DNA from: Escherichia coli
GTDB taxonomy: Bacteria > Pseudomonadota > Gammaproteobacteria > Enterobacterales > Enterobacteriaceae
Strand: one strand, 5' to 3'
Assembly: GCF_022846255.1 (NCBI RefSeq)
Contig: NZ_AP025682.1
Length of the DNA: 64,000 bases
Shown: positions 5,573 through 50,458 of the stretch, one piece after another
Position numbering within the stretch: position 1 is the first letter of the stretch
Layout: each line of letters opens with the position of its first letter
Translations under genes and position numbers: made by a program
The notes under the pieces: generated by a model
The model's input: the letters and a program-made list of their open reading frames with translations, nothing else
Told to the model about the DNA's origin: nothing
The model's database searches: none

Positions 5573-5595
5573 ACTCCGCATTTGTAGGCAGGATA

Positions 5596-5670
5596 AGGCG
5601 TTTACGCCGCATCCGGCATTTGAGCAGGATGCCTGATGCGACGCTGATAGCGTCTTATCAGGCCTACACT
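5596..5670. repeat. REP/BIME elements in the cpxA–yiiM intergenic region
   Basis: gccgcatccggcatttgagcaggatgcctgatgcgacgctgatagcgtcttatcaggcctac. Confidence 0.55.
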
Positions 5671-14170: not shown

Positions 14171-14690
14171 ACACTGCCGGATGCGGCACAAGTGCCTTAT
14201 CCGGCCTACAGGTCAGCAACAGTTGTAGCCCTGATAAGACGCGACAGCGTCGCATCAGGCATTGATTGCCGGATGCGGCACGAGTGCCTTATCCGGCCTA
14301 CGGGTCGGCAATAGTTGTAGGCCTGATAAGACGCGACAGCGTCGCATCAGGCATTGATTGCCGGATGCGGCACGAGCGCCATATCCGGCCTACGGGTCGG
14401 CAATAGTTGTAGGCCTGATAAGACGCGACAGCGTCGCATCAGGCATTGATTGCCGGATGCGGCACGAGTGCCTTATCCGGCCTACGGGTCAGCAACAGTT
14501 GTAGGCCTGATAAGACGCGACAGCGTCGCATCAGGCATTGATTGCCGGATGCGGCACAAGTGCCTTATCCGGCCTACGGGTCGGCAATAGTTGTAGGCCT
14601 GATAAGACGCGACAGCGTCGCATCAGGCATTGATTGCCGGATGCGGCACGAGTGCCTTATCCGGCCTACGGGTCGTGCATCCGACAACAC
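14171..14690. repeat. BIME tandem array (REP pairs) filling the rhaA–rhaD intergenic region
   Basis: Unit gccggatgcggcac(a/g)agtgccttatccggcctacgggtc(a/g)gcaa(c/t)agttgtaggcctgataagacgcgacagcgtcgcatcaggcattgatt recurs with a ~93-bp period; starts at about 14177, 14270, 14363, 14450, 14543 and 14636. Confidence 0.8.
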
Positions 14691-37063: not shown

Positions 37064-37939
37064 ATGGACTTTTTTACGTTATTTTCACCGGATGGGGTCA
37101 TGCTGGAAACAAACGTGGTATGTATCGTTATCGCGTTAATGTTTCTTTATACCTTTGTGGGGATATGCGCGGGATTTGGCGGTGGTTTAACCACCATGCC
37201 GCTCGTCACGTTAATGCTCCCCGTAAAAATGGCAACTCCGCTCTCGGTGATTGTCGGCACCGCGACCGCCTTGTACGCCACCTGGCTGTCACGTAAAGAA
37301 ACGGATTGGCGATCGGCAATGGTACTGATTATTTTCTCGTTTCTGGGAATACCCGTCGGTTTATATGCGCTGTCGTATTTACCCGACCATTTTATGAAAG
37401 TGGGCTTAGGCGGATTCCTTATCCTGTACTCCTTTTACAGTATGTTTATTCCACGCCTGCCGATTTATGACCGTAGCTGGATCGCCGCACCTATCGGCGC
37501 CGTGGCAGGAGCGTTAGGGGCAGCATTTTCAACCAACGGACCGCCGATGGTTATCTACGGTATGCTGCGTAACTTAGGCCCGGCGGCATTTCGCGGCACT
37601 CTGAACGCTTTCTTCACCGCAAACAACATCGCGGTGATCGGCGGGCTGGCGACCAGCGGAATTTTGACTGTCTCTATCTTTAAACTGGTGCTGTTTTGTA
37701 TTCCCACCATGATCCTCGGTTCACTGGTTGGACAATATGTGCATAAACGCATTTCGGTCAAAGTGTTCCGTGTGATGGTCTTTTTATTGCTGATTGCCTC
37801 CGGTTCTATGTTGATAAAAGGCGCGCTGGGAATTCCCGCCGCTGCCGCACTTCTTCCTCCGTTTACCTTGTTAGTTATACTGCAACTGGCATTTGGTAAA
37901 AAAGTGGCGGCAATCCGTCGGGCGGAAGAAAGTAAATAA
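37064..37939 (+). CDS. TauE/SafE-family (DUF81) membrane permease; not a K-12 yih gene as far as I recall
   Basis: 291 aa; polytopic hydrophobic protein with Gly-rich TM segments (GFGGGLTTMPLVTLML, GAVAGALGAAFSTNGPPMVIYG) typical of TauE/SafE anion exporters; RBS aggaaatatt before ATG. Confidence 0.7.
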   Translation: MDFFTLFSPDGVMLETNVVCIVIALMFLYTFVGICAGFGGGLTTMPLVTLMLPVKMATPLSVIVGTATALYATWLSRKETDWRSAMVLIIFSFLGIPVGLYALSYLPDHFMKVGLGGFLILYSFYSMFIPRLPIYDRSWIAAPIGAVAGALGAAFSTNGPPMVIYGMLRNLGPAAFRGTLNAFFTANNIAVIGGLATSGILTVSIFKLVLFCIPTMILGSLVGQYVHKRISVKVFRVMVFLLLIASGSMLIKGALGIPAAAALLPPFTLLVILQLAFGKKVAAIRRAEESK

Positions 37940-38044
37940 TCATTATGCGGGTTTTAATTTATACCCGCACACATTCTTTAATTAATGAAACCTGTAATAA
38001 CAGGATGGCATGAAATATTAGTTTTATATCTATGGAGATTATTT

Positions 38045-40081
38045 ATGGATACGCCACGCCCACAGCTATTAGATTTTCAATTTCATCAGAATAACGACAG
38101 TTTTACTCTACGTTTTCAAGACCGCCTTATTTTAATCCATAGCAAAGATAATCCTTGTTTATGGATTGGTTCAGGTATAGCGGATATCGATATGTTCCGC
38201 GGTAATTTCAGCATTAAAGATAAATTGCAGGAGAAAATTGCGCTTACCGACGCCATCGTCAGCCAGTCACCGGATGGCTGGTTAATCCATTTCAGCCGTG
38301 GTTCTGACATTAGCGCCACGCTGAATATCTCTGCCGACGATCATGGCCGTTTATTGCTGGAACTACAAAACGACAACCTTAACCACAACCGCATCTGGCT
38401 GCGCCTTGCCGCACAGCCGGAAGATCATATCTACGGCTGCGGCGAACAATTCTCCTACTTTGATCTGCGCAGCAAACCGTTCCCGCTGTGGACCAGTGAA
38501 CAAGGCGTTGGTCGCAACAAACAAACCTATGTCACCTGGCAGGCCGACTGCAAAGAGAATGCGGGAGGGGATTACTACTGGACCTTCTTTCCACAACCCA
38601 CGTTTGTTAGCACGCAGAAGTATTACTGCCATGTTGATAACAGTTGCTATATGAACTTCGACTTTAGCGCGCCGGAATACCATGAACTGGCGCTGTGGGA
38701 AGACAAAGCAACACTGCGTTTTGAATGTGCTGATACATACATCTCCCTGCTGGAAAAATTAACCGCGCTGCTGGGACGCCAGCCAGAACTGCCCGACTGG
38801 ATTTATGACGGAGTAACGCTCGGCATTCAGGGCGGCACTGAGGTGTGCCAGAAGAAACTGGACACCATGCGTAACGCGGGCGTGAAGGTCAACGGCATCT
38901 GGGCGCAGGATTGGTCCGGTATTCGTATGACCTCTTTTGGCAAACGCGTAATGTGGAACTGGAAGTGGAACAGCGAAAACTACCCGCAACTGGATTCACG
39001 TATCAAGCAGTGGAACAAAGAGGGCGTACAGTTCCTTGCCTATATCAACCCGTATGTTGCCAGCGATAAAGACCTCTGCGAAGAAGCGGCAAAGCGCGGC
39101 TATCTGGCAAAAGATGCCGCCGGCGGCGATTATCTGGTGGAGTTTGGCGAGTTCTACGGCGGCGTTGTCGATCTCACTAATCCGGAAGCCTACGCCTGGT
39201 TCAAGGAAGTGATCAAAAAGAACATGATTGAACTCGGCTGCGGCGGCTGGATGGCTGACTTCGGCGAGTATCTGCCCACCGACACTTACCTGCATAACGG
39301 CGTCAGCGCCGAAATTATGCATAACGCCTGGCCTGCGCTGTGGGCGAAATGTAACTACGAAGCCCTTGAAGAAACGGGCAAGCTCGGCGAGATCCTCTTC
39401 TTTATGCGCGCCGGTTCCACCGGTAGCCAAAAATATTCCACCATGATGTGGGCGGGCGACCAGAACGTTGACTGGAGTCTGGACGATGGACTGGCGTCTG
39501 TCGTCCCGGCGGCGCTGTCGCTGGCAATGACCGGACATGGCCTGCATCACAGTGATATTGGCGGTTACACCACCCTGTTTGAGATGAAGCGCAGCAAAGA
39601 GCTGCTGCTGCGCTGGTGCGATTTCAGCGCCTTCACGCCGATGATGCGCACCCATGAAGGTAACCGTCCAGGCGACAACTGGCAGTTTGATAGCGACGCG
39701 GAAACTATCGCCCATTTTGCCCGTATGACCACCGTCTTCACTACCCTGAAACCTTACCTGAAAGAGGCCGTCGCGCTGAATGCGAAGTCCGGCCTGCCGG
39801 TTATGCGCCCGCTGTTCCTGCATTACGAAGACGATGCACAGACCTACACCCTGAAATATCAGTACCTGTTAGGCCGCGACATTCTGGTCGCTCCGGTGCA
39901 TGAAGAAGGCCGTAGCGACTGGACGCTCTATCTGCCGGAGGATAACTGGGTCCACGCCTGGACGGGTGAAGCGTTCCGGGGCGGGGAAGTGACCGTTAAT
40001 GCGCCCATCGGTAAACCGCCGGTCTTTTATCGCGCCGATAGCGAATGGGCGGCACTGTTCGCGTCGTTAAAAAGCATCTAA
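38045..40081 (+). CDS. yihQ: Sulfoquinovosidase (GH31)
   Basis: MDTPRPQLLDFQFHQNNDSFTLRFQDRLILIHSKDNPCLWIGSG...; GH31 catalytic region (…WAQDWSGIRM…, …WMADFGEYLP…); 678 aa from the internal Met. Confidence 0.9.
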   Translation: MDTPRPQLLDFQFHQNNDSFTLRFQDRLILIHSKDNPCLWIGSGIADIDMFRGNFSIKDKLQEKIALTDAIVSQSPDGWLIHFSRGSDISATLNISADDHGRLLLELQNDNLNHNRIWLRLAAQPEDHIYGCGEQFSYFDLRSKPFPLWTSEQGVGRNKQTYVTWQADCKENAGGDYYWTFFPQPTFVSTQKYYCHVDNSCYMNFDFSAPEYHELALWEDKATLRFECADTYISLLEKLTALLGRQPELPDWIYDGVTLGIQGGTEVCQKKLDTMRNAGVKVNGIWAQDWSGIRMTSFGKRVMWNWKWNSENYPQLDSRIKQWNKEGVQFLAYINPYVASDKDLCEEAAKRGYLAKDAAGGDYLVEFGEFYGGVVDLTNPEAYAWFKEVIKKNMIELGCGGWMADFGEYLPTDTYLHNGVSAEIMHNAWPALWAKCNYEALEETGKLGEILFFMRAGSTGSQKYSTMMWAGDQNVDWSLDDGLASVVPAALSLAMTGHGLHHSDIGGYTTLFEMKRSKELLLRWCDFSAFTPMMRTHEGNRPGDNWQFDSDAETIAHFARMTTVFTTLKPYLKEAVALNAKSGLPVMRPLFLHYEDDAQTYTLKYQYLLGRDILVAPVHEEGRSDWTLYLPEDNWVHAWTGEAFRGGEVTVNAPIGKPPVFYRADSEWAALFASLKSI

Positions 40082-40126
40082 TCACATCCGCCCGTGGGGA
40101 AACTCACGGGCAAAGGGAGAACAACG

Positions 40127-41512
40127 ATGAGTCACATCACAACGGAAGATCCAGCAACTCTACGCCTGCCCTTTAAAGAGAAACTCTCTTACGGTATCGG
40201 CGATCTGGCCTCTAACATCCTACTGGATATCGGCACGCTTTATCTTTTGAAGTTTTATACCGATGTTCTGGGGCTGCCTGGCACCTATGGCGGCATTATC
40301 TTTTTGATTTCAAAATTCTTTACCGCCTTTACCGATATGGGTACCGGCATTATGTTGGATTCCCGACGCAAGATCGGTCCAAAAGGTAAGTTCCGTCCTT
40401 TTATTCTGTATGCGTCATTTCCGGTCACCCTGCTGGCGATCGCCAACTTTGTCGGCACACCGTTTGATGTCACCGGTAAAACGGTGATGGCCACCATCCT
40501 GTTTATGCTTTACGGACTGTTTTTCAGCATGATGAACTGCTCGTATGGCGCGATGGTCCCCGCTATTACTAAAAACCCCAACGAACGCGCCTCACTGGCG
40601 GCATGGCGTCAGGGTGGCGCTACATTGGGCCTGCTGCTTTGTACGGTGGGATTCGTGCCGGTTATGAATCTTATCGAGGGTAATCAGCAACTTGGCTATA
40701 TCTTCGCCGCCACGCTGTTTTCACTGTTCGGCCTGCTGTTTATGTGGATCTGCTATTCGGGCGTGAAAGAGCGTTATGTCGAAACCCAACCTACCAATCC
40801 GGCGCAAAAGCCTGGCTTGTTGCAATCTTTCCGCGCAATTGCGGGGAACCGCCCACTGTTCATTTTGTGCATTGCCAACCTCTGTACCTTAGGGGCGTTT
40901 AACGTCAAGCTCGCCATTCAGGTCTATTACACCCAGTACGTGCTTAACGATCCCATCCTGTTGTCATATATGGGATTTTTCAGCATGGGCTGTATTTTCA
41001 TCGGCGTGTTCCTGATGCCTGGTGCAGTCAGACGTTTTGGTAAGAAGAAGGTCTATATCGGCGGTCTGCTGATCTGGGTGCTGGGCGATCTGCTCAACTA
41101 TTTCTTCGGCGGCGGCTCGGTCAGCTTTGTGGCTTTCTCCTGCCTGGCGTTCTTTGGTTCGGCGTTTGTTAACAGCCTGAACTGGGCGCTGGTTTCTGAC
41201 ACCGTCGAGTACGGCGAGTGGCGCACCGGTGTGCGTTCAGAAGGTACGGTCTACACCGGTTTCACCTTCTTTCGCAAAGTATCTCAGGCGCTGGCAGGTT
41301 TCTTCCCAGGCTGGATGCTGACGCAAATTGGCTATGTGCCAAACGTCGCCCAGGCTGACCACACTATCGAAGGGTTGCGCCAACTGATCTTCATCTACCC
41401 AAGCGCACTGGCAGTAGTCACCATTGTGGCAATGGGTTGCTTCTACAGTCTGAACGAGAAGATGTACGTCCGCATTGTTGAAGAGATAGAAGCCCGTAAA
41501 CGCACGGCGTAA
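40127..41512 (+). CDS. yihP: GPH-family sugar:cation symporter YihP
   Basis: MSHITTEDPATLRLPFKEKLSYGIGDLASNILLDIGTLYLLKFYTDVLGLP...; 12-TM. Confidence 0.85.
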   Translation: MSHITTEDPATLRLPFKEKLSYGIGDLASNILLDIGTLYLLKFYTDVLGLPGTYGGIIFLISKFFTAFTDMGTGIMLDSRRKIGPKGKFRPFILYASFPVTLLAIANFVGTPFDVTGKTVMATILFMLYGLFFSMMNCSYGAMVPAITKNPNERASLAAWRQGGATLGLLLCTVGFVPVMNLIEGNQQLGYIFAATLFSLFGLLFMWICYSGVKERYVETQPTNPAQKPGLLQSFRAIAGNRPLFILCIANLCTLGAFNVKLAIQVYYTQYVLNDPILLSYMGFFSMGCIFIGVFLMPGAVRRFGKKKVYIGGLLIWVLGDLLNYFFGGGSVSFVAFSCLAFFGSAFVNSLNWALVSDTVEYGEWRTGVRSEGTVYTGFTFFRKVSQALAGFFPGWMLTQIGYVPNVAQADHTIEGLRQLIFIYPSALAVVTIVAMGCFYSLNEKMYVRIVEEIEARKRTA

Positions 41513-41554
41513 TTATAATAAACAACGCCCTGCGGGGCGTTATAAGGAGTGATT

Positions 41555-42958
41555 ATGTCTGACCATAATCCACTGACATTAAAACTGAATCTGCGGGAAA
41601 AAATCGCCTATGGTATGGGCGACGTCGGTTCGAATTTAATGCTTAGCATCGGCACTCTGTATCTCCTCAAATTTTATACCGATGAATTAGGGATGCCTGC
41701 TTACTATGGCGGGATTATCTTTCTGGTGGCGAAATTCTTTACCGCATTTACCGATATGCTCACCGGATTTTTACTCGACTCGCGGAAAAATATTGGACCT
41801 AAAGGAAAATTCAGGCCGTTTATTTTATACGCAGCGATTCCGGCGGCGTTAATTGCAACGCTCCAGTTTATCGCCACCACCTTTAGTTTGCCGGTTAAAA
41901 CGACGATTGCCACCGCACTGTTTATGATGTTTGGACTTTCATACAGTCTGATGAACTGCTCGTATGGCGCGATGATCCCGGCCATTACCAAAAACCCGAA
42001 TGAGCGCGCGCAACTCGCTGCTTACCGCCAGGGTGGTGCAACCATAGGGCTATTGATCTGTACCGTGGCGTTTATTCCTTTGCAGTCACTATTTTCTGAC
42101 TCCACCGTCGGCTACGCCTGCGCGGCACTGATGTTCTCCATTGGCGGCTTTATTTTTATGATGCTGTGCTACAGAGGTGTCAAAGAGCATTATGTGGACG
42201 CGACGCCAACCGGACATAAGGCCAGTATTCTCAAATCATTTTGCGCGATATTTCGTAATCCACCTTTGCTGGTATTGTGCATTGCTAACCTGTGTACCCT
42301 GGCGGCATTTAATATCAAACTGGCGATTCAGGTCTATTACACCCAGTATGTGCTGAATGATATTAACTTATTGTCGTGGATGGGATTCTTTAGTATGGGA
42401 TGCATTCTCATCGGCGTATTACTGGTGCCACTAACTGTAAAATGTTTTGGTAAAAAACAGGTTTATCTGGCTGGCATGGTGCTGTGGGCGGTGGGGGATA
42501 TCCTGAATTATTGCTGGGGCAGTAACTCATTCACTTTCGTCATGTTCTCTTGTGTCGCCTTTTTTGGCACGGCCTTTGTAAACAGCCTGAACTGGGCACT
42601 GGTACCAGATACCGTAGATTATGGTGAATGGAAAACAGGTATACGTGCCGAAGGTTCTGTTTATACCGGTTATACCTTCTTTCGTAAAATTTCAGCCGCA
42701 CTTGCTGGCTTCTTGCCCGGCATTATGCTGACGCAAATCGGTTATATTCCCAACATCGCGCAAAGCGATGCAACATTACAGGGTTTGCGTCAGCTCATTT
42801 TTATCTGGCCTTGTGCGCTGGCAATTATTGCTGCATTGACGATGGGGTTCTTTTACACGCTCAATGAGAAACGGTTTGCACTGATTATTGAGGAAATTAA
42901 CCAACGCAAAAATAAAGAAATCGAGACAGAAGAAAAAACGGCTTCCGTAACGTTATAA
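41555..42958 (+). CDS. yihO: GPH-family sulfoquinovose transporter YihO
   Basis: MSDHNPLTLKLNLREKIAYGMGDVGSNLMLSIGTLYLLKFYTDELGMP...; paralogous to the preceding yihP. Confidence 0.85.
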   Translation: MSDHNPLTLKLNLREKIAYGMGDVGSNLMLSIGTLYLLKFYTDELGMPAYYGGIIFLVAKFFTAFTDMLTGFLLDSRKNIGPKGKFRPFILYAAIPAALIATLQFIATTFSLPVKTTIATALFMMFGLSYSLMNCSYGAMIPAITKNPNERAQLAAYRQGGATIGLLICTVAFIPLQSLFSDSTVGYACAALMFSIGGFIFMMLCYRGVKEHYVDATPTGHKASILKSFCAIFRNPPLLVLCIANLCTLAAFNIKLAIQVYYTQYVLNDINLLSWMGFFSMGCILIGVLLVPLTVKCFGKKQVYLAGMVLWAVGDILNYCWGSNSFTFVMFSCVAFFGTAFVNSLNWALVPDTVDYGEWKTGIRAEGSVYTGYTFFRKISAALAGFLPGIMLTQIGYIPNIAQSDATLQGLRQLIFIWPCALAIIAALTMGFFYTLNEKRFALIIEEINQRKNKEIETEEKTASVTL

Positions 42959-43025: not shown

Positions 43026-43718
43026 ATGAAAAATATTAATGCAATAATTTTATTATCTTCTCTGACCTCTGCCTCGGTATTCGCTGGCGCATACGTCGAA
43101 AACAGGGAAGCATATAATCTCGCCTCCGATCAGGGCGAGGTTATGCTACGTGTGGGTTATAACTTCGATATGGGCGCGGGTATTATGCTAACCAATACCT
43201 ACACCTTTCAGCGAGAAGATTAACTCAAACATGGCTATAATGAAATTGAAGGTTGGTATCCTTTATTTAAACCTACCGATAAATTAACCATCCAGCCCGG
43301 TGGCTTAATTAATGACAAGAGTATCGGTTCGGGTGGTGCTGTTTATCTGGATGTTAACTACAAATTTACTCCGTGGTTTAACCTGACGGTGCGTAATCGC
43401 TATAACCATAATAATTACAGCTCTACAGATTTGAACGGCGAATTGGATAATAACGACACCTATGAAGTTGGCACCTACTGGAACTTTAAAATAACAGAAA
43501 AATTTTCCTATACATTTGAACCACATTACTTCATGCGAGTGAATGACTTTAATAGTAGCAACGGGAAAGATCATCATTGGGAAATCACTAACACCTTCCG
43601 TTACCGTATTAATGAACACTGGCTTCCTTATTTCGAATTGCGCTGGTTAGACCGCAACGTCGAGCCGTACCACCGCGAGCAAAACCAGATTCGTATCGGA
43701 ACGAAGTATTTCTTCTGA
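43026..43718 (+). pseudogene. ompL: ompL outer-membrane porin, disrupted by a premature TAA at 43221-43223 (codon 66)
   Basis: ORF 42990..43223 (signal peptide MKNINAIILLSSLTSASVFA...TFQRED*) and ORF 43389..43718 (...IRIGTKYFF) are in the same frame; translation after the stop continues LKHGYNEIEGWYPLFKPTDKLT... without further stops. Confidence 0.8.
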
Positions 43719-43770
43719 TGTAAAAATTCCTGATGCGATGCTGGCGCATCTTATCAGGTCTACAAAAGCC

Positions 43771-43803
43771 AAAAAAAACCTGCCATCGCTGGCAGGTTTT
43801 TTA
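43771..43803. terminator. Bidirectional intrinsic terminator between ompL and typA
   Basis: aaaaaaaacctgccatcgctggcaggtttttta: GC stem flanked by an A-run and a T-run. Confidence 0.6.
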
Positions 43804-43819
43804 TGACTAAAAAACGAAA

Positions 43820-45643
43820 TTAATCGTCTTTCGGTGCGCGGTTGGCGCGACGACGATCGTTTTCCGTCAGGTGACGTTTACGAATACGGATAGAGGTCGG
43901 AGTCACTTCTACCAGTTCGTCATCATCGATGAACTCCAGAGCTTGTTCCAGAGTCATGCGGATAGGCGGAACCAGAACAACGGCTTCGTCAGTACCGGAA
44001 GCACGCATGTTGGTCAGTTTCTTACCGGTCAGGCAGTTTACAGTCAGGTCGTTAGAGCGGCTGTGAATACCGATAATCTGACCTTCGTAAACTTCAGCAC
44101 CGTGACCGAGGAACAGCTTACCGCGATCCTGCAGACCGAACAGCGCGAACGCTACCGCTTTACCCTGACCGTTAGAGATCAGTACGCCGTTCTGACGCTG
44201 GCCCACTTCACCCGGACGTACGTCGTCGTAGTGGCTGAAGGTGGAGTACAGCAGACCAGTACCGGAAGTCATGGTCATGAACTCAGAACGGAAGCCAATC
44301 AGACCACGGCTTGGGATCACGTAGTCGAGACGTACGCGGCCTTTACCGTCTGGATTCATGTTTTTCAGGTCGCCTTTACGTTCGCCCAGCGCCTGCATTA
44401 CAGAACCCTGATGCTGTTCTTCAACGTCCAGAGTCACGTTTTCATACGGCTCTTGTTTACGACCGTCGATTTCACGGAAGATAACTTTCGGACGGGATAC
44501 CGCCAGTTCGAAACCTTCACGACGCATGTTTTCGATAAGAACAGACAGGTGCAGTTCGCCACGACCAGAAACGCGGAACGCATCGGCGTCTTCGGTTTCT
44601 TCTACGCGCAGCGCAACGTTGTGTACCAGTTCTTTGTTCAGACGATCCAGGATCTGACGAGACGTTACGAACTTACCTTCTTTACCGCAGAACGGCGAGG
44701 TGTTAACGCAGAAGAACATAGAAACGGTCGGCTCATCAACGGAGAGTGCCGGCAGCGCTTCAACGTTTTGCGTGTCGCAAACGGTGTCAGAAATGTTCAG
44801 TTCGCCAAGACCCGTGATCGCCACGATATCGCCAGCTTCCGCCAGATCGGTTTCGATACGTTCCAGACCGAGGTGGCCCAGCACTTTACCGACTTTCGCG
44901 TTGCGGGTTTTGCCTTCGCTATCGATGATAGTAACCTGCTGGTTCGGCTTCACTTTACCGCGCTTGATGCGGCCAATGCCGATAACGCCAACATAGCTGT
45001 TGTAATCGAGCTGAGAAATCTGCATCTGGAACGGACCGTCAAGGTCAACGTCCGGCGCAGGAACGTGGTCAACAATCGCCTGGTACAGCGGGGTCATGTC
45101 TTCCGCCATATCTTCGTGGTCCAGACCCGCGATACCGTTCAGCGCAGAAGCGTAAACGATCGGGAAGTCCAGCTGCTCGTCGGTCGCGTCGAGGTTAACG
45201 AACAGATCGAATACCTGATCCACAACCCAATCAGGACGCGCGCCAGGGCGGTCAACTTTGTTGATAACAACAATCGGCTTCAGGCCGTAAGCAAACGCTT
45301 TTTTGGTTACGAAGCGCGTTTGCGGCATCGGGCCGTCAAATGCGTCAACCACCAGCAGCACTGAGTCTACCATGGACATTACACGTTCAACTTCACCACC
45401 GAAGTCGGCGTGCCCCGGGGTATCAACGATGTTGATACGGTAATCATTCCATTTGATAGCGGTGTTTTTCGCGAGGATGGTAATCCCACGCTCTTTCTCC
45501 AAATCGTTGGAGTCCATCACGCGCTCTTGGGTTTCGGCACGAGAGTCGAACGTACCGGATTGTTGGAGCAGCTTGTCTACCAGGGTGGTTTTACCATGGT
45601 CTACGTGCGCGATGATGGCGATATTACGCAATTTTTCGATCAC
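43820..45643 (-). CDS. typA: Ribosome-associated translational GTPase BipA/TypA
   Basis: 607 aa; [32 protein letters not shown]... (G1 [10 protein letters not shown]3 DTPGH, NKVD). Confidence 0.95.
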
Positions 45644-46015: not shown

Positions 46016-47425
46016 ATGTCCGCTGAACACGTACTGACGATGCTGAACGAGCACGAAGTGAAGTTTGTTGATTTGCGCTTCACCGATACCAAAGGTAAAG
46101 AACAGCACGTCACTATCCCTGCTCATCAGGTGAATGCCGAATTCTTCGAAGAAGGCAAAATGTTTGACGGCTCCTCGATTGGCGGCTGGAAAGGCATTAA
46201 CGAATCCGATATGGTGCTGATGCCAGACGCATCCACCGCAGTGATTGACCCGTTCTTCGCCGATTCTACCCTGATTATCCGTTGCGACATCCTTGAACCT
46301 GGCACCCTGCAAGGCTATGACCGTGACCCGCGCTCTATTGCGAAGCGCGCTGAAGATTACCTGCGTTCTACTGGCATTGCCGACACCGTACTGTTCGGGC
46401 CAGAACCTGAATTCTTCCTGTTCGATGACATCCGTTTCGGATCGTCTATCTCCGGTTCCCACGTTGCTATCGACGATATCGAAGGTGCATGGAACTCCTC
46501 CACCCAATATGAAGGTGGTAACAAAGGTCACCGTCCGGCAGTGAAAGGCGGTTACTTCCCGGTTCCGCCGGTAGACTCAGCTCAGGATATCCGTTCTGAA
46601 ATGTGCCTGGTGATGGAACAGATGGGTCTGGTGGTTGAAGCTCATCACCACGAAGTCGCTACCGCAGGTCAGAACGAAGTGGCTACCCGCTTCAATACCA
46701 TGACCAAAAAAGCTGACGAAATTCAGATCTACAAATATGTCGTGCACAACGTGGCGCACCGTTTCGGTAAGACCGCGACCTTTATGCCAAAACCGATGTT
46801 CGGTGATAACGGTTCCGGTATGCACTGCCACATGTCGCTGTCTAAAAACGGCGTCAACCTGTTTGCTGGCGACAAATACGCAGGTCTGTCTGAGCAGGCA
46901 CTGTACTACATTGGCGGCGTAATCAAACACGCTAAAGCGATTAACGCCCTGGCAAACCCGACCACCAACTCTTACAAGCGTCTGGTCCCGGGCTACGAAG
47001 CACCGGTAATGCTGGCTTACTCTGCGCGTAACCGTTCTGCGTCTATCCGTATTCCGGTGGTTTCTTCTCCGAAAGCACGTCGTATCGAAGTACGTTTCCC
47101 GGACCCGGCGGCTAACCCGTACCTGTGCTTTGCTGCCCTGCTGATGGCCGGTCTTGATGGCATCAAGAACAAGATCCATCCGGGCGAAGCCATGGACAAA
47201 AACCTGTATGACCTGCCGCCAGAAGAAGCGAAAGAGATCCCACAGGTTGCAGGCTCTCTGGAAGAAGCACTGAACGAACTGGATCTGGACCGCGAGTTCC
47301 TGAAAGCTGGTGGCGTGTTCACGGATGAAGCGATCGATGCGTACATCGCTCTGCGTCGCGAAGAAGATGACCGCGTGCGTATGACTCCGCATCCGGTAGA
47401 GTTTGAGCTGTACTACAGCGTCTAA
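46016..47425 (+). CDS. glnA: Glutamine synthetase
   Basis: 469 aa; [60 protein letters not shown]... Confidence 0.95.
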
Positions 47426-47485
47426 TAGTTGAAGTTGTACTACCCGGCGCAACAACGCCGGGATTTAGTTGCCGTGGAAACTTTC

Positions 47486-47510
47486 AGCCCATCTCTGCAT
47501 GGGCTTTTTT
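47486..47510 (+). terminator. Intrinsic terminator after glnA
   Basis: cagcccatctctgcatgggctttttt; the region between the glnA stop and this hairpin is also where the 3'-UTR sRNA GlnZ would lie. Confidence 0.5.
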
Positions 47511-47560
47511 CTCCGTCAATTCTCTGATGCTTCGCGCTTTTTATCCGTAAAAAGCTATAA

Positions 47561-47577
47561 TGCACTAAAATGGTGCA
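47561..47577 (+). promoter_or_regulatory. NtrC site at the glnL promoter
   Basis: tgcactaaaatggtgca (TGCACnnnnnTGGTGCA-like palindrome) about 25 bp upstream of the glnL start. Confidence 0.5.
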
Positions 47578-47598
47578 ACCTGTTCAGGAGACTGCTTT

Positions 47599-50306: not shown

Positions 50307-50458
<152 letters not shown>

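Follow-up and report, generated by a model that had tools for sequence, protein, structure and literature searches.

A yihLMN-less ompL–typA junction in Escherichia coli as the probable product of a secondary loss

In the 64-kb stretch of E. coli DNA analysed here (hereafter, the window), the 3' ends of ompL and typA face each other across a short spacer, at a position where, according to an earlier note on this sequence, K-12 has three genes, yihL, yihM, and yihN. This arrangement raises the question of whether the three genes were lost from the locus or were never acquired by it. The comparisons described below suggested that the window probably carries the yihLMN-less allele of an old polymorphism downstream of typA, and that this allele arose by secondary loss.

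The convergent junction and its K-12 counterpart

The features of the junction are listed in Table 1. The spacer is exactly 101 bp, close to the distance of about 100 bp given previously, and holds one complete REP unit and one symmetric terminator hairpin. No match to yihL, yihM, or yihN was found anywhere in the 64-kb window by tblastn. The window OmpL is 97% identical to K-12 OmpL (tblastn), and typA is 100% identical to K-12 typA in amino acids and 99.5% identical in nucleotides.

Table 1. Features at and around the ompL–typA junction of the window
Feature	Position	Strand	Remarks
yihQ	37985-40081	+	gene order around the junction
yihP	40094-41512	+	gene order around the junction
yihO	41549-42958	+	gene order around the junction
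ompL (porin OmpL), 230 codons	43026-43718	+	left flank; TGA stop at 43716-43718
ompL–typA convergent spacer, site without yihLMN	43719-43819		101 bp
REP unit, single, complete, T/A arm variant	43729-43763	+	35 nt
Filler AAAAGCC	43764-43770		7 bp, in place of 3,279 bp in K-12
T2, typA intrinsic-terminator hairpin	43771-43802		A8, CCTGCCA-TCGC-TGGCAGG, T6
typA (bipA), ribosome-dependent GTPase	43820-45643	-	right flank; stop codon at 43820-43822
glnA	46016-47425	+	followed by glnL and glnG

The earlier note had placed a REP fragment and a terminator in the spacer; both elements are present, but the REP unit is complete. Its 35-nt sequence occurs once in the window, with zero occurrences expected by chance, and its tail, CTTATCAGGTCTAC, is one mismatch away from the motif CTTATC(A/C)GGCCTAC, of which the window contains 19 copies against an expectation of 0.03. 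The unit folded into an imperfect hairpin (-16.5 kcal/mol, z = -4.0). It is extragenic, lying between two stop codons, and is a multi-copy, imperfectly palindromic sequence with a conserved tail, as is characteristic of a REP element. The same 35 nt gave a weak Rfam match to naRNA4, described in Rfam as a nucleoid-associated noncoding RNA, a family that we take to be connected to REP elements. Elsewhere in the window, a BIME-like tandem array of six alternating REP units with a spacing of ~92 bp was observed at 14196-14669, together with three more REP pairs at 526-588, 5584-5667, and 50325-50441.

The hairpin next to typA, designated T2, folded at -19 kcal/mol (z = -7.5); its GC-rich stem of 7 bp is preceded by an A8 run and followed by a T6 run, a sequence that fits an intrinsic terminator on both strands. 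The terminator scan called T2 on the typA strand; on the plus strand, extension of the stem swallowed the T-run. Because the sequence is symmetric, the label "bidirectional" appears reasonable, and T2 could serve ompL and typA convergently. A full-length match (1-71) to the Rfam family STnc370 (RF02064) was found at 43767-43835 on the minus strand (E = 1e-6), with a score of 53 bits, one bit short of the gathering threshold of 54 bits; the E. albertii equivalent scored 47 bits. This region is probably best treated as a typA 3'-end and terminator element, and not called an STnc370 member, and the match suggests that STnc370 itself represents a fragment of the typA 3'-UTR or terminator. Beyond this sub-threshold match, the Rfam search of the spacer returned only weak, chance-level matches. 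In four related loci, the ES222 sRNA was detected above its gathering threshold in the typA–glnA spacer (L008 2753-2860, L013 15936-16044, L019 4627-4733, and L050 5065-5172).

In the K-12 annotation (L001), ompL and typA are separated by yihN, yihM, and yihL, which lie on the strand opposite to ompL, so that the gene order given in the earlier note proved right; we looked for ompL adjoining typA in K-12 and found yihNML there. When K-12 and the window were aligned from typA to ompL, as the earlier note had proposed, homology extended through ompL and the REP, was lost over 3,279 bp of K-12 (L001 2721-5999), and came back at the A-run of T2. The K-12 segment comprises yihN, yihM, yihL, and the yihL promoter region, and the window has the 7-bp AAAAGCC in its place. 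K-12 and the window share the flanking genes, the position of the REP right after ompL, T2, and the gene order from glnG to yihQ. The K-12 REP, however, is a G/C-arm variant with a different interior, unlike the T/A-arm variant of the window, and ompL is intact in K-12 whereas it is interrupted in the window. The long sulfoquinovose cassette of the window is divergent from that of K-12 (ompL 93.5% and yihO 95.4% identity), compared with 99.5% for typA. The glnA gene is only 97.1% identical to that of K-12 beside a typA at 99.5%, indicating a mosaic recombination history, and the glnA–glnL spacer measures 173 bp in the window (47426-47598) as well as in S88, Nissle, and FHI_NMBU_03, compared with 285 bp in K-12 (L001 9656-9940).

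The K-12 segment encodes only yihL, yihM, and yihN, the products of which are a regulator with Pfam GntR and UTRA domains, a xylose-isomerase-like TIM-barrel protein (AP_endonuc_2), and an MFS_1 transporter, respectively. Our literature search on yihL, yihM, and yihN found no study of their function or of a presence/absence polymorphism. Neither the annotation nor the boundary sequences showed an integrase, a transposase, or a flanking direct repeat at the ends of the K-12 module, and a sequence comparison of its boundaries, GGTTGATACGG... and ...CGACAGGC, revealed no common repeat. The module thus appears to lack the marks of a mobile island or transposon, and mobile-element machinery was probably not involved in the absence of yihLMN.

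Distribution of the allele in E. coli and E. albertii

The ompL–typA junction of the window was found in 215 of 5,426 complete E. coli genomes (~4%; 98.8-100% identity, at least 80% coverage), from sources including humans, marsupials, bats, rodents, and poultry. The window-type allele aligned across the junction without gaps with the other carriers, including E. albertii (0 gaps). The same-junction genomes FHI_NMBU_03, SE15, MP1, and A22 have an identical ompL-REP-AAAAGCC-T2-typA architecture; their ompL is annotated as intact, and none has the nonsense codon of the window ompL described below. The genome closest to the window over 24 kb was FHI_NMBU_03, which is collinear at 99.7% identity and also carries the TauE gene considered below; no genome identical to the window was found among the matches listed.

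The pangenome check proposed earlier showed that the yihLMN segment is present at a coverage of at least 80% in 4,239 of the 5,426 genomes. The yihL–typA junction was found in 4,350, so that ~20% of the genomes are without it. Long and short yih cassettes (ompL-yihOPQRSTUVW and yihTUVW) have been described by Kaznadzey et al. (2025; PMC12608037). The short cassette lies immediately next to typA in 624 genomes, among them those of S88, JJ2434, and the type strain ATCC 11775, and a short cassette followed by yihNML was found in 736, for example Nissle 1917, which leaves ~3,500 genomes (4,239 minus 736) with the K-12 arrangement. Each cassette form was thus seen both with and without yihLMN, and the occurrence of all four combinations indicated that the two polymorphisms recombine freely. 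The cassette dimorphism lies in the same neighbourhood, and its authors reached the same conclusion, namely that recombination reshuffles an evolutionarily labile region. PMC12608037 makes no mention of yihL, yihM, yihN, or typA, and the yihLMN polymorphism represents a separate layer.

Sporadic IS-mediated variants of the region also occur in individual strains, and these, together with the four states of cassette and yihLMN among the 5,426 genomes, bore out the previous view that the locus is variable. In UTAK-5 (L046 2983-4432), an IS1-associated deletion extends from yihR into yihL, and in GMM076 (L047 5447-9958), ISEc31 carrying a group II intron is inserted in yihM. In RM10466 (L055 6089-6200), a short cassette is followed by a hairpin resembling T1, the terminator hairpin of other genera described below (TCCGCTGGGGATTCAGCGGA), a truncated REP (GCCGGATGCGGCCTAC), the K-12-type boundary GGTTGATACGG, and yihNML. 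The T1-like hairpin thus coexists with yihNML in this strain, which represents an intermediate haplotype and shows that a further small deletion gave the Nissle-type boundary. The T1-like hairpin of S88 was considered as the yihW terminator of the long cassette, carried there by an inversion; this proposal was rejected, as the window contained no match to it at up to three mismatches and as the hairpin occurs together with yihNML in RM10466.

The age of the allele was assessed against E. albertii NBRC 107761 (L008), the comparison covering this one genome, with E. fergusonii, E. marmotae, and E. ruysiae not included. The two spacers share their length, the REP position, AAAAGCC, and T2, and they aligned gap-free with 94 of 101 positions identical (93.1%, 7 mismatches). 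The identities of the neighbouring genes were 96.2% for typA, 96.1% for glnA, and 84.4% for ompL. The divergence of the spacer (7/101) is at the species level, so that the allele is old, having been inherited or exchanged long ago, and neither its deletion nor its import can be recent. Window-type and S88-type junctions have the same AAGCC directly before the A-run, which hints at a common origin of their typA-proximal breakpoint. The E. albertii REP combines a K-12-type left arm (CCGGAT) with a window-type right arm (ATCAGG), and these hybrid arms prompted us to consider REP–REP recombination as the deletion mechanism. In a spread sample of 60 of the 4,350 genomes with the yihL–typA junction, the spacing was constant at 459-462 bp, with one IS200C insertion, and no REP was found between the yihL promoter and T2. 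REP–REP recombination was thus unsupported in these genomes, although it may have acted in an extinct ancestor.

Gene contexts in other genera and the origin of the allele

A scan for OmpL in one genome per species yielded 41 loci. ompL directly adjoins typA in 15 of them, the species including E. albertii, two Citrobacter, S. enterica subsp. arizonae, Enterobacter, Kosakonia, Atlantibacter, Franconibacter, and Buttiauxella. Within this set, the loci with yihNML between ompL and typA are those of E. coli K-12, E. whittamii, and three Citrobacter genomes; taken by itself, this pattern would point to an insertion in E. coli. As in the window, ompL and typA of Enterobacter, Kosakonia, Citrobacter werkmanii, S. 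enterica subsp. arizonae, and others are convergent, 57-103 bp apart, with one bidirectional terminator. In the four taxa named, however, this hairpin is T1 (GCCGCTGA..TCAGCGGC), whereas that of the window is T2, suggesting that these junctions are not the same event.

The order typA-yihL-yihM-yihN was found in Kluyvera, Pseudocitrobacter, Klebsiella aerogenes, Pluralibacter, Citrobacter, and Escherichia. The identity of YihM was 85% for a Kluyvera MAG, 83% for Pseudocitrobacter, 76% for Pluralibacter lignolyticus, and 71% for K. aerogenes, dropping roughly with taxonomic distance. K. aerogenes, Pseudocitrobacter, and Pluralibacter have yihLMN beside typA and no sulfoquinovose cassette at all, which indicates that the linkage of yihLMN to typA is old and independent of the cassette. 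In Obesumbacterium and Serratia, the trio was found at unrelated loci. yihLMN was thus found to be a neighbour of the sulfoquinovose (sulfo-EMP) cassette ompL-yihOPQRSTUVW and not a member of it, and PMC12608037 does not give the three genes as part of the cassette.

A T2-type hairpin (A-run, CC(C)YGCC ... GGCAGG) was present in all 12 yihL-bearing loci, from six genera, at 26-28 nt from the typA stop in each, and also at this position in the Escherichia loci without yihLMN. T2 was found in 4/4 Escherichia loci without yihL (the window, FHI_NMBU_03, E. albertii, and S88) and in none of the non-Escherichia loci without yihL, most of which carry T1 alone (GCCGCT..AGCGGC) and six of which have neither hairpin. 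In Citrobacter and Kluyvera bearing yihLMN, T1 is located at the boundary between the cassette and yihN; in Escherichia, the cassette end adjoins yihN, and ompL is followed by the REP. As T1 and T2 are similarly spaced from the typA stop, the two hairpins might be variants of a single terminator and not independent markers. Taken together, these data show directly that the ancestral order in this part of the Enterobacteriaceae is typA, T2, yihL, yihM, yihN. The gene contexts of YihM and the distribution of T1 and T2 also overturned a candidate reading in which the ompL–typA adjacency was ancestral and yihLMN a recent insertion. The retention of T2 at the Escherichia sites without yihLMN is as predicted for a deletion from a yihLMN-bearing ancestor, and the difference between T1 and T2 boundaries suggested that the sites without yihLMN in other genera are separate events.

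In the proposed course of the loss, a single deletion in one Escherichia lineage would have started immediately behind the REP, ended ~7 bp short of the A-run of T2, and removed ~3.3 kb, producing ompL-REP-AAAAGCC-T2-typA. This allele would then have persisted and spread among lineages as homologous recombination acted in the conserved flanks, and it is now found in E. albertii and ~4% of E. coli, including the window strain. The filler AAAAGCC matches neither end of the K-12 module, so that the deletion is not reconstructable from K-12-like sequence and its breakpoints are inferred.

This feature of the filler would also fit a primary empty site, in which the Escherichia ancestor had the order ompL-REP-T2-typA and most E. 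coli later gained the 3.3-kb module by recombination from another enterobacterium, with the window keeping the original state, a history that we regard as unlikely. It agrees with the absence of yihLMN and the collinear spacer in E. albertii, an outgroup to E. coli, with the widespread ompL–typA adjacency in the Enterobacteriaceae (the 15 of 41 loci), and with the divergence of the window ompL and yihO from K-12, which fits an old separate haplotype. However, T2 was found together with yihLMN in six genera, whereas no non-Escherichia site without yihLMN has it, and a never-occupied Escherichia site should therefore carry T1. Moreover, no known donor exceeds 85% identity in YihM, and yihLMN-bearing E. 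coli keep the Escherichia-type REP on the ompL side and not a donor-type T1. The yihN of E. whittamii, at a species-level nucleotide identity of 94.9%, indicates that Escherichia has carried yihLMN for a long time as well.

The loss from a yihLMN-bearing ancestor that we favour is itself old, and a recent strain- or clone-specific deletion, for example one mediated by an IS or arisen in the laboratory, is highly improbable: the IS events in UTAK-5 (IS1) and GMM076 (ISEc31 with its group II intron) demonstrate that such changes do occur in the region, but the junction has no IS or scar, and its recurrence in 215 genomes and, at 7% divergence, in E. albertii refutes this explanation. Even less credible is an assembly artefact in which collapse of the REP and terminator repeats dropped 3.3 kb. 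The 19 REP copies in the window are repeats of a kind that can confuse short-read assemblies; the artefact is nevertheless refuted by the same structure in 215 finished genomes, K-12 has no second REP on the yihL side with which a collapse could occur, and the flanks are continuous and collinear with FHI_NMBU_03 over the 24 kb at 99.7%.

Neighbouring polymorphisms and significance

The earlier note had grouped the absence of yihLMN with a nonsense codon in ompL and an extra TauE gene, as signs that the periphery of the sulfosugar cluster is evolutionarily fluid. This view held for the yihLMN and TauE polymorphisms, but the ompL nonsense is private and a different kind of event. The window ompL is interrupted by TAG at codon 66 (43221-43223), which is presumably Glu in K-12 OmpL. 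A 61-mer around this TAG had no exact match in the 5,426 genomes, every match having at least one mismatch; the TAG is private to the window strain or a sequencing error.

The TauE/SafE sulfite-exporter gene lies between yihR and yihQ (37064-37939; Pfam PF01925, E = 8e-35). We assume that K-12 is without a TauE gene at this position, and the K-12 strain did not appear among the matches listed in the TauE search. The gene was found in 1,287 of the 5,426 genomes, including O157:H7 EDL933, which keeps yihLMN, so that the presence or absence of TauE is independent of yihLMN. A strict linkage of TauE to the absence of yihLMN, as one ancient haplotype, was rejected for the same reason, as O157:H7 carries both. 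In the Kluyvera MAG (L048), a TauE gene was observed between yihP and yihQ instead. The region thus holds at least three independent polymorphisms, namely the cassette form, TauE, and yihLMN.

The absence of yihLMN is an ordinary accessory-gene polymorphism, already visible in hundreds of annotated public genomes. What our analysis adds is its probable direction (a loss that retained T2), its age (from E. albertii), its independence from the cassette and TauE, and the cargo found in the gap elsewhere. The window strain presumably lacks one small module for the uptake and catabolism of a sugar derivative, and its ompL and typA would, in the absence of yihLMN, converge on T2 as one shared terminator. 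For annotators, the strain belongs to a minority E. coli haplotype without yihLMN, a fact of little significance beyond bookkeeping. The natural nulls, comprising the 215 window-type and at least 624 short-cassette genomes, could serve as ready controls for finding the substrate of YihLMN.

We tentatively considered, as a joint proposition that we hold to be rather doubtful, that the presence or absence of yihLMN is a long-lived trans-species polymorphism kept by selection in a sugar-derivative niche and that the spacer downstream of typA is a family-wide cargo hotspot. If this is true, the polymorphism would be common to E. coli and E. albertii, with a parallel in Citrobacter, where C. youngae strains differ, and the cargo of the hotspot would comprise the STM4011-4015 cluster, Hcp-effector modules, and yihLMN.

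Across genera, the ompL–typA gap looks like a recurrent insertion spot. In Superficieibacter (L045 10748-16307), the gap contains genes of the STM4015, STM4014, STM4013, STM4012, and STM4011 families and a Cof-type phosphatase gene, and in Siccibacter (L037 10776-12216), a TssD/Hcp gene and two small ORFs. A common trio of unassigned ORFs was found in the gaps of Atlantibacter hermannii (L030 10899-12498) and Franconibacter helveticus (L044 10725-12317), and two unassigned ORFs were observed in that of Citrobacter amalonaticus (L020 10902-12024).
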